From the NCBI RefSeq assembly GCF_013315695.1, contig NZ_CP054353.1: a stretch of 64,000 bases of DNA; one strand, written 5' to 3'. The position numbers and the translations under genes are program-made. Below, in pieces: positions 54,670 through 57,088 of this stretch (within the stretch, counting starts at the first letter, position 1; each line of letters begins with the position of its first letter). The stretch comes from Escherichia coli (GTDB lineage: Bacteria > Pseudomonadota > Gammaproteobacteria > Enterobacterales > Enterobacteriaceae). The notes under the pieces were generated by a model, which ran no database searches, was not told the DNA's origin, and saw only the letters and a list, made by a program, of their open reading frames with translations.

Positions 54670-55075
54670 TACCACCTCTTAAAAAAATGCCCACATAGTG
54701 TAGTGCGGAGCGCATGTTGGGTAAACAGAGTGTTAATGAGAAAATATTACAGAGGAGAATAGTTTGTGTGTCAGGTATGTTTATTTTGCATTCATAAAAT
54801 GAATGCTCTATATGTTGAAAAAATTATTCTTAAAGCTAAATAGTTTTACATCAAAAGTAATAATATTATTTCTTGATTGCTATGTGCATTTTTTATCTTG
54901 CGAACATGCTATTTTTATCTCACTAAATAAACGATTTGGTGACATCGATGATAATGTTTCAGGTTAAATGTGTGCTTATTACTTGGGCCTTTATTGTACT
55001 GTATTTATTCATTAAATGGATGTTTGGTGGTTAATTATCATGGAAATATATGACAGAGAGAGCATAAAGGTATAC

Positions 55076-56011
55076 ATGTTAACTAAAAGAATATTATTTT
55101 CTTTAATGCTAATAGTTTCACCATGCGTGGTGGCAAGCGAGAAAGCGCATGAATTGTATGACAGCATATACGGTGGTCAACCTGCGCCCGATGTTATAAA
55201 TAGACTGCATAAAATGGCTGAATTGGGAGATGTCGACGCGCAGAGCCTGTTAGGCTGGGAATATTATCAGCCTCGCTTTGATACCAAACCTGATGTTCAG
55301 GAAGCGATTAAATGGTTTGAGTTAGCCGCTAAACACGGTGATAGAGAAGCTCCGTTAGCGCTGGGGAGTATCTACTACGACGGTGAGCTGGTGCGGGTGG
55401 ATTATGCCAAAGCGTATGCACTATTTAATCAGGCCGCGCAATACGGTGTGAATTTAGCATGGTCCAGGTTGGGCATGATGTACGCCAATGGTCAGTATGT
55501 TGAGGTCGATTGTAAGAAAGCGAAGGAATATCTTGATAAAGGTGTCCACATTTATGGTGGTCCGGAAGACTTTCTGGCTACATGTCGAAAAGACATGATT
55601 GACAGAAAAATGGTTGACGATACGTTACCCGTGATCACGGTTACCCGTTCTGGGATGCGGGATAATTTTTTAGATAAAGGTTTTTCCTGCATGGATAGCC
55701 TCTTCGCCACCACCAATAAATTAGGCGAAGTGGCCAATCTTCGCGTGACATTCAGCATTCGTAGCCCATCCGGTAAGGAGATTAACCAAACGGTTGGCTT
55801 CGCGCCTTTCGGTTTAAACCGGCTGAATATTAGCTTTACTGATTACATATTTGATTCATTTACCAGTAATTCGTCTCTAATTCTTTATAAACCGGAATTT
55901 GAGCGAAAATCTTGTGCAACTGTAAGGACCACAATCGTTGCCGCAACGGCAACCATTAACGGCAAGGATGTGGAGTTGCTGAAAGCGGGGGCAATTGAAC
56001 AAAAGTGGTAA
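55076..56011 (+). CDS. Secreted Sel1-repeat (SLR/TPR-like) protein with an uncharacterised C-terminal domain
   Basis: RBS AAAGG 6 bp upstream of ATG 55076; signal peptide MLTKRILFSLMLIVSPCVVA; repeated ...A..W...AA..G...A...LG..YY.G... Sel1 motifs; not part of the K-12 yajR-cyoE junction as I recall it. Confidence 0.7.
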   Translation: MLTKRILFSLMLIVSPCVVASEKAHELYDSIYGGQPAPDVINRLHKMAELGDVDAQSLLGWEYYQPRFDTKPDVQEAIKWFELAAKHGDREAPLALGSIYYDGELVRVDYAKAYALFNQAAQYGVNLAWSRLGMMYANGQYVEVDCKKAKEYLDKGVHIYGGPEDFLATCRKDMIDRKMVDDTLPVITVTRSGMRDNFLDKGFSCMDSLFATTNKLGEVANLRVTFSIRSPSGKEINQTVGFAPFGLNRLNISFTDYIFDSFTSNSSLILYKPEFERKSCATVRTTIVAATATINGKDVELLKAGAIEQKW

Positions 56012-56066
56012 CGCTGCTCAGTCCCCGGCTGAGGCAAAACTAGCCCTGGCCGGAGGCGATAATAAT

Positions 56067-56609
56067 CTAAGCCGCGAGAATATGCTGAATCGCTAAAAAC
56101 ATCGGTACAGCACCGAAAACATTGGGCCTCGCTGAAAGCTGAACAAAGCCGAGGCGAGTATAAAAGTTAATGGCGGCAGGGTCAGCATCAAGATAAACCC
56201 CTTTAATTGGTAATGCACGGTGAATTATTTTTACATGTTCAAAAAAATCACATAGTAGGTCCTGACCAAAGCCCCGCTTTTGATATTTCCGCGCTACCCC
56301 TAACATGACTAATCTGACAACACCAATCTCTGAAGGTTGTGAACCCTGAAGGACGCCAGAAACGCGTTGTTTTTCCAGCGAATATGCCGTAAAAGTACAG
56401 ATGCCAATCAGTTCACCACTTTGTCTGTCAATAAGAGCTTTAGCAGCACAGTCGCTATTACGCACACTTTTCTTTAGCGATGCGCGTACAAATTTATCGA
56501 TAACAGGGTTACCGCAATCAAACTGTTTTTGCCCAGGATAAGTAATATCAGACTGATAATTACAGGAGAGGACTATGGGCAGAGTAATCTCTTCATGCTT
56601 GTCGACCAT
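56067..56609 (-). CDS. GNAT-family acetyltransferase toxin (TacT/AtaT/ItaT-like type II toxin)
   Basis: 180-aa ORF with N-terminal FDCG motif (QKQFDCGNPVIDKF), cf. QRFDCGEEALN remembered from AtaT; GNAT acetyl-CoA signature (RGFGQDLLCDFFE); immediately downstream of and overlapping a DUF1778-type antitoxin. Confidence 0.75.
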   Translation of the reverse strand: MVDKHEEITLPIVLSCNYQSDITYPGQKQFDCGNPVIDKFVRASLKKSVRNSDCAAKALIDRQSGELIGICTFTAYSLEKQRVSGVLQGSQPSEIGVVRLVMLGVARKYQKRGFGQDLLCDFFEHVKIIHRALPIKGVYLDADPAAINFYTRLGFVQLSARPNVFGAVPMFLAIQHILAA

Positions 56610-56904
56610 CGCTGTTTTTCCTTTTCATTAACGCCTTGAGGGCGAGCGTCGGTTGAGCAGGTTCAGCGATGAGTTGGTTCATCAGTTCCCAGCTTTGATT
56701 CGAAAGCTCACGGCGACGTTGGTTATCAAGCACACTTTCGGCGCGTTCCATAGCTGCGCTCAAAATAAAAGCGCTTAAATCTACCCCAACGGCTTGCGCA
56801 GCTTCACGAAGTTTGTTTTTGGCGTCGGGACTGGTTTTGAGTTCAACCCGCGCATTTTTCAGCGTTTTATCGATATCGGGTAGAGCGACTGTTTTTCCAG
56901 GCAT
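56593..56904 (-). CDS. DUF1778 (RHH) antitoxin partner of the GNAT toxin (TacA/AtaR-like)
   Basis: 103-aa protein from MPGKTVALPDIDKTLKNARVELKTSPDAKNKLREAAQAVGVDLSAFILSAAMERAE...; RBS AGAGG upstream of ATG at 56904; ORF track start at 56970 is probably over-extended. Confidence 0.7.
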   Translation of the reverse strand: MPGKTVALPDIDKTLKNARVELKTSPDAKNKLREAAQAVGVDLSAFILSAAMERAESVLDNQRRRELSNQSWELMNQLIAEPAQPTLALKALMKRKNSDGRQA

Positions 56905-57052
56905 TATGACCTCTTTGATTAACTGAATGAAATCGTAGGGAGTCGATCTCATGCATAATACGGCTATCAACCGTGTGATTAATTTATGTGCATATGCTCA
57001 CTCTGTCAAGAGATACGGTTATTAGCCGTATCTCTGATCTCAGACAATAAAA

Positions 57053-57075
57053 AAGGTGCCGTAGCACCTTTTTTA
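57053..57075 (-). terminator. Rho-independent terminator of the cyoABCDE operon
   Basis: AAGGTGCCGTAGCACCTT hairpin flanked by A-run and T-run (reads as a terminator on both strands). Confidence 0.75.
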
Positions 57076-57088
57076 TAGAGAGGTTGTA

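Follow-up and report, generated by a model that had tools for sequence, protein, structure and literature searches.

The closest described relative of the gene pair considered here is the ItaR-ItaT system of Escherichia coli HS (EcHS_A0501 region), which was described in 2018 (Wilcox et al., PMC6125619) and followed by a toxin structure in 2020 (PDB 7BYY; Zhang et al., PMC7367177) and by in-vivo targets in 2022. The itaR and itaT genes partially overlap each other, and their products have published sizes of 11.4 kDa (ItaR) and 19.8 kDa (ItaT). When produced alone, ItaT arrests growth and blocks translation; ItaR neutralises it, and the pair co-purifies at a roughly stoichiometric ratio. The ItaR-ItaT complex represses a reporter driven from the 172-bp upstream region, whereas ItaR alone does not (PMC6125619).

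The toxin is an acetyltransferase that modifies the isoleucine of Ile-tRNAIle (PMC6125619), with Val-tRNA and Met-tRNA as further, secondary substrates (PMC7367177). Its activity depends on G115, Y150, V36, I37, F40, M102, L133, K46/K47, and K80, and mutagenesis assigned the preference for Ile, Val, and Met to V36, I37, F40, and M102 (PMC7367177). The same study defined the acetyl-CoA motif of GNAT toxins as Q/R-x-x-G-x-G/A, and its structure, 7BYY, is that of ItaT(G115D). In ribosome profiling, ItaT causes pauses chiefly at AUU and AUC codons, and peptidyl-tRNA hydrolase counters its toxicity; elongation is therefore the step that ItaT hits (PMC9177977).

More distant relatives share the same plan. 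KacA-KacT of Klebsiella pneumoniae (PDB 5ZGN, 5XUN) has the GNAT plus DUF1778 architecture in common with ItaRT. AtaR-AtaT of E. coli O157:H7 and TacA-TacT of Salmonella (PDB 6AJM/6GTS and 5FVJ/7AK8, respectively) belong to the same family, in which aminoacyl-tRNA undergoes N-alpha-acetylation; their toxins are also dimeric, and their antitoxins combine a ribbon-helix-helix region with an inhibitory segment at the C-terminus. In contrast to ItaT, AtaT and TacT prefer other substrates (Gly- or Met-tRNA) and fall into separate phylogenetic clades (PMC9177977).

The pair under study lies in a 64,000-nucleotide stretch of E. coli DNA, referred to here as the window, and its features are collected in the table below. 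Judged by sequence and position, this pair is almost certainly the chromosomal itaRT type II toxin-antitoxin operon of E. coli, acting as the HS pair does. Of the 180 toxin residues, 176 (97.8%) agree with wild-type ItaT from E. coli HS, and 100 of the 103 antitoxin residues (97.1%) agree with ItaR. The 5.1 kb around the locus are collinear with the HS chromosome at 96.7% identity, and both chromosomes have the gene order yajR - Sel1/TPR gene - itaT - itaR - cyoE. Because of these identities, the collinear alignment, and the common gene order, the pair is best regarded as the positional orthologue of itaRT, beyond mere family membership. It matches the HS system in its site, protein lengths, 17-nt overlap, promoter hexamers, and operator-like boxes. 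The differences comprise four toxin substitutions, of a conservative or surface type, and three changes in the N-terminal tail of ItaR.

Features of the itaRT locus (window coordinates)
Feature	Position	Strand	Basis
Low-GC accessory islet, ~2.3 kb, with Sel1-repeat gene and itaRT, between yajR and the cyoE terminator	54780..57045	.	K-12 and HS comparison
Sel1-repeat protein gene, 311 aa, the other gene of the islet	55076-56011	+	Annotated start
itaT, 180-aa GNAT acetyltransferase toxin, ATG start	56067..56609	-	7BYY match, HS identity, Pfam GNAT
Overlap of itaR 3' end and itaT 5' end, 17 nt, ATGGTCGACAAGCATGA	56593..56609	-	Sequence reading; RefSeq annotation
itaR, 103-aa antitoxin; N-terminal ribbon-helix-helix region and C-terminal DUF1778/TacA toxin-binding region	56593..56904	-	Pfam, PDB, HS identity
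Shine-Dalgarno AAAGAGG, 5-nt spacer to the itaR ATG	56910..56916	-	Sequence; identical in E. coli HS
Proximal candidate operator, ACGGTTGATAGCCGT(A) in gene orientation	about 56958..56974	.	Second core copy
Candidate itaRT promoter: -35 TTGACA (57009-57004), 17-nt spacer, -10 TAAATT (56986-56981)	56981..57009	-	Consensus match
Distal candidate operator, 27-bp palindrome AGAGATACGG-N7-CCGTATCTCT, abuts -35	57009..57035	.	Inverted repeat

The first-pass annotation of this DNA had described two overlapping genes for a GNAT toxin that would acetylate aminoacyl-tRNA and a DUF1778 antitoxin, and this reading holds, now on the basis of orthology to the characterised itaRT of HS. Both minus-strand open reading frames and the 17-bp overlap were recovered by direct reading of the sequence, and the RefSeq annotation of a genome with 100% identity across the 2.4-kb region compared has both coding sequences, their ends unchanged. 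The FDCG motif noted earlier sits at toxin residues 30-33 (QFDCGN spans residues 29-34), and the reported DUF1778 pattern is present in the antitoxin as LSAFILSAAMERAES...QSWELMNQL or SAFILSAAMERAES...QSWELMNQL. The label "AtaT/TacT/ItaT-like" stands insofar as it names ItaT; mere likeness understates the relationship, given 97.8% and 97.1% identity and the same site between yajR and cyoE. The locus can thus be named precisely as itaR/itaT, which is of little importance beyond correct annotation. The itaRT system is already known in detail, and the sole new item here is a modest prediction of operators.

Profile and structure searches are consistent with this assignment. A profile search had been proposed as a check, and in it the toxin (calculated mass 19.9 kDa, in line with the published 19.8 kDa) exceeded the cut-offs of three GNAT families in Pfam: Acetyltransf_7 (1.1e-7), Acetyltransf_10 (2e-6), and Acetyltransf_1 (4.3e-6). 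Against the PDB, the toxin aligns from end to end with chain 7BYY_A (E = 1.3e-115). In the acetyl-CoA loop, the single difference from that chain is the engineered G115D change, where the window protein carries the wild-type glycine. All other PDB matches, to KacT, AtaT, TacT, and related toxins, are far weaker (1e-9 to 1e-3). For instance, KacT is a distant match that aligns with the window toxin over residues 29-159 (E ~1e-6), and AtaT and TacT show weak sequence similarity (E 1e-5 to 1e-3).

The residues of ItaT that are tied to function are retained. The acetyl-CoA motif QKRGFG occupies residues 110-115 and agrees with the family definition. Y150, the general-acid catalytic tyrosine of ItaT, is present within INFYTRLGF and is invariant in homologues, and the aminoacyl-pocket residues V36, I37, F40, and M102 are all identical to those of ItaT. 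In fact, every residue with importance proven by mutagenesis is kept (V36, I37, F40, M102, G115, Y150, L133, K46, K47, and K80).

The four substitutions relative to HS ItaT are Q131R, A151T, T161R, and A164V. Two of these adjoin functional residues: Q131R lies next to the dimer-interface residues I129, A132, and L133, and A151T is next to the catalytic Y150. With GNAT toxin specificity known to drift between relatives (PMC9177977), the locus could be read as an itaRT orthologue with shifted or weakened toxin activity, attributable to A151T and Q131R, to which the published target list would not be exactly transferable. If true, this would make the window allele a natural case of specificity drift inside one species. 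The four substituted positions, however, also vary among homologues that are 62-77% identical (R/Q/Q/N at 131, T/A/A/K at 151, R/T/P/A at 161, and V/A/A/P at 164), while the pocket, catalytic, and other functional residues are invariant there. Since the changes occupy such naturally variable positions, a shifted-activity allele is improbable. The low dN/dS of itaT also disfavours it, and the allele group to which the window belongs (at least 99% identical in DNA) is intact in ~100 genomes.

The antitoxin, with a calculated mass of 11.37 kDa, matches the Pfam family TacA1 (PF08681, formerly DUF1778) at 1.1e-17, scoring 64 bits where the cut-off is 21. The closest solved antitoxin is KacA (E = 3.5e-11), and DUF1778 chains of the AtaR type follow at ~1e-8. 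Matches to other ribbon-helix-helix families are weak and sub-threshold; these include NikA-like in Pfam (25.2 bits, cut-off 27) and MobA and RelB in NCBIfam. Compared with KacA, ItaR has ~11 additional N-terminal residues, and the three differences from HS ItaR, at positions 6, 7, and 11, fall in this extension, ahead of the KacA-aligned region. The itaR gene is the first of the operon, and the start codon of itaT lies inside its 3' end on the same strand. A 125-aa form of the antitoxin with a TTG start, present in the list of open reading frames, was passed over in favour of the 103-aa ATG form on the grounds of the ribosome-binding site, the RefSeq annotation, and the published size of 11.4 kDa.

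Database names are less specific than these matches. In RefSeq, the toxin carries just the name "GNAT family N-acetyltransferase", and the label of the antitoxin varies between "DUF1778 domain-containing protein" and "TacA family antitoxin". An NCBIfam scan found no specific model for ItaT or ItaR and returned only sub-threshold matches (RimI, PaiA, and MshD for the toxin; MobA and RelB for the antitoxin). The RefSeq product names are generic because NCBIfam has no dedicated model, and the scan is uninformative; it takes nothing away from the toxin-antitoxin reading. Taken at face value, the bare RefSeq name and the weak matches would suit a housekeeping acetyltransferase of the RimI or PaiA type beside an unrelated small DNA-binding protein, with no toxin-antitoxin pair at all. 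The RimI, PaiA, and MshD scores are nevertheless far under their cut-offs (17-19 bits versus 86-250), and the partner gene encodes a TacA1/DUF1778 antitoxin. Above all, a housekeeping role is excluded for practical purposes because the window toxin is near-identical to one whose toxicity has been demonstrated and whose structure has been solved.

What the itaRT operon of the window would do can be proposed step by step, by orthology from the 97-98% identical HS pair. Free ItaT would be a dimeric GNAT enzyme. Its expected targets are Ile-tRNAIle first, followed by Val-tRNA and Met-tRNA; Ile-tRNAIle is expected to be the main one because the pocket, catalytic, and acetyl-CoA residues are identical to those of ItaT. 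The earlier statement that the target tRNA cannot be read from the sequence was too cautious in this respect, as Ile-tRNAIle can be inferred by orthology. Ribosomes would then stall at the affected codons and growth would stop, with the damage reversible by peptidyl-tRNA hydrolase. ItaR would bind ItaT tightly and so neutralise it, and the ItaR-ItaT complex, rather than ItaR by itself, would repress the promoter of its own operon. To this scheme may be added that repression would act via two TACGG-N7-CCGTA palindromes: the first adjoins the -35 hexamer, and the second lies a short way downstream of the -10 hexamer.

The candidate promoter is sigma-70-like and represents the top consensus match (10/12) in the 185-bp gap between cyoE and itaR. 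It lies within the ~172-bp upstream fragment with published promoter activity, which ItaR plus ItaT repress (PMC6125619). E. coli HS has the same two hexamers. The core of the distal box, TACGG-N7-CCGTA, spans 57014-57030, and the 13-nt arms of the 27-bp palindrome are 92% complementary. The proximal box holds a second copy of the core at 56960-56974, begins 7 nt downstream of the -10 hexamer, and is 55 bp from the distal one. The looser core ACGG-N7-CCGT matches the 64-kb window exactly twice, at these two boxes; this core is not rare alone, with 0.95 matches expected per window, whereas 0.02 chance occurrences of the strict core TACGG-N7-CCGTA are expected.

Conservation of the boxes extends beyond this allele. 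Between the window and HS, 8 of ~185 upstream positions differ (~96% identity), and the hexamers and boxes are kept. Twin boxes are also found upstream of the plasmid homologues of Citrobacter freundii (55-bp spacing) and Serratia marcescens (61-bp spacing), where they hold the same place relative to a -35 of the TTGAC type, while the DNA between and around them has diverged. The ribbon-helix-helix region of ItaR is likewise nearly invariant across these homologues. Because the boxes bracket the promoter and are conserved in homologues, and because this region of ItaR is near-invariant, the twin palindromes are proposed as candidate operators, probably bound by ItaR-ItaT. The 2018 ItaT paper makes no mention of operators, palindromes, or inverted repeats (PMC6125619), and the prediction is testable. 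There is a slim chance that the window allele differs measurably from HS ItaT in aminoacyl-tRNA range or potency; separately, the twin boxes would be the first defined operators of the ItaRT clade.

The itaRT operon belongs to an accessory islet carried by roughly one in four complete E. coli genomes: the full-length locus occurs in 1367 of 5426 (~25%), with one copy per carrier genome in all but one. The carriers fall into two identity groups, one of ~100 genomes at 99% identity or above, including IAI39 and CE10, and one of ~1265 genomes at ~97%, of the HS type. The window allele is the one usual in strains like IAI39 and CE10. BL21(DE3) is also among the carriers of itaRT (PMC6125619). K-12 lacks the islet, and the gap between yajR and cyoE measures 148 bp there. 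GC content is 31-47% within the islet versus 50-55% in the flanks. The left edge of the islet is approximate, while the right edge falls exactly at the cyoE terminator hairpin in the junction alignment.

In comparisons between the window and HS, itaT has a dS (0.126) close to the values for its core neighbours cyoE (0.122) and yajR (0.095), and a dN/dS of 0.087. For itaR, dN/dS is 0.29, a value derived from six differences only. Because itaT has a dS like that of these two genes together with a low dN/dS, these data fit a locus that has long been inherited vertically at this site and kept by purifying selection. They also bear on whether the locus is the remnant of a decaying module that has lost its toxin activity in this lineage. 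Decay is frequent among chromosomal toxin-antitoxin modules, and itaRT has no known physiological role (PMC6125619). Against this, conservation extends to the promoter, the boxes, and the ribosome-binding site, and a decayed remnant is very unlikely because both frames and the QKRGFG and Y150 motifs are intact and itaT dN/dS is low.

Two homologues of the pair from other species are plasmid-borne. The Citrobacter freundii p2-S1-CHI-03-B homologue is 77% identical in its toxin and 79% in its antitoxin, while that on plasmid P1 of Serratia marcescens is 62% and 61% identical, respectively. Both share the overlapping gene order with itaRT, and neither has a Sel1 neighbour; the Sel1-repeat gene was rejected as a third component of the system since these homologues are without it. 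The Citrobacter homologue (NZ_CP145667.1, a 97-kb plasmid; locus L004, 2706-3546) lies between baseplate and phage tail genes, a context that suggests carriage by a phage-plasmid and perhaps a role as an addiction or defence module. A PADLOC scan of the window toxin and antitoxin gave no match to any defence-system model, so there is no support for filing the pair as a catalogued anti-phage system.

Two sets of database matches were set aside as evidence for a phage origin or for plasmid carriage of the window allele. The only close matches in the phage collection are two unannotated fragments labelled "Escherichia phage", OR845150.1 (6.5 kb) and OR844664.1 (2.3 kb), which carry itaT at 98-100% identity and are most likely E. 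coli chromosomal fragments deposited as phage. The matches in PLSDB (97.8%) are to records of 1.2-4.8 Mb (CP061270.1, CP099174.1, and NZ_OL790696.1), which are probably chromosomal sequence mislabelled as plasmid.

Several smaller observations concern the remainder of the islet and its edges. The N-terminus of the Sel1-repeat protein resembles a signal peptide (MLTKRILFSLMLIVSPCVVASE), and the C-terminal half of the protein (~130-150 aa) has no family match in Pfam or NCBIfam. This gene is less constrained than its neighbours (dN/dS of 0.31 versus HS), and a longer, 331-aa form proposed by the ORF finder (start at 55016) differs from the annotated start. Beside the left edge of the islet, the ~100 bp nearest yajR (54676-54780) are homologous to K-12 at only ~65-70% identity, versus ~97% for the flanking genes, and this diverged patch is possibly an old recombination junction. 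At the right-hand boundary, the cyoE terminator (57047-57076) is a perfect hairpin with 13-bp arms (ATAAAAAAGGTGC/GCACCTTTTTTAT) and T-runs on both strands. This terminator is kept in K-12, and in the window it would also shield itaRT from cyo read-through.
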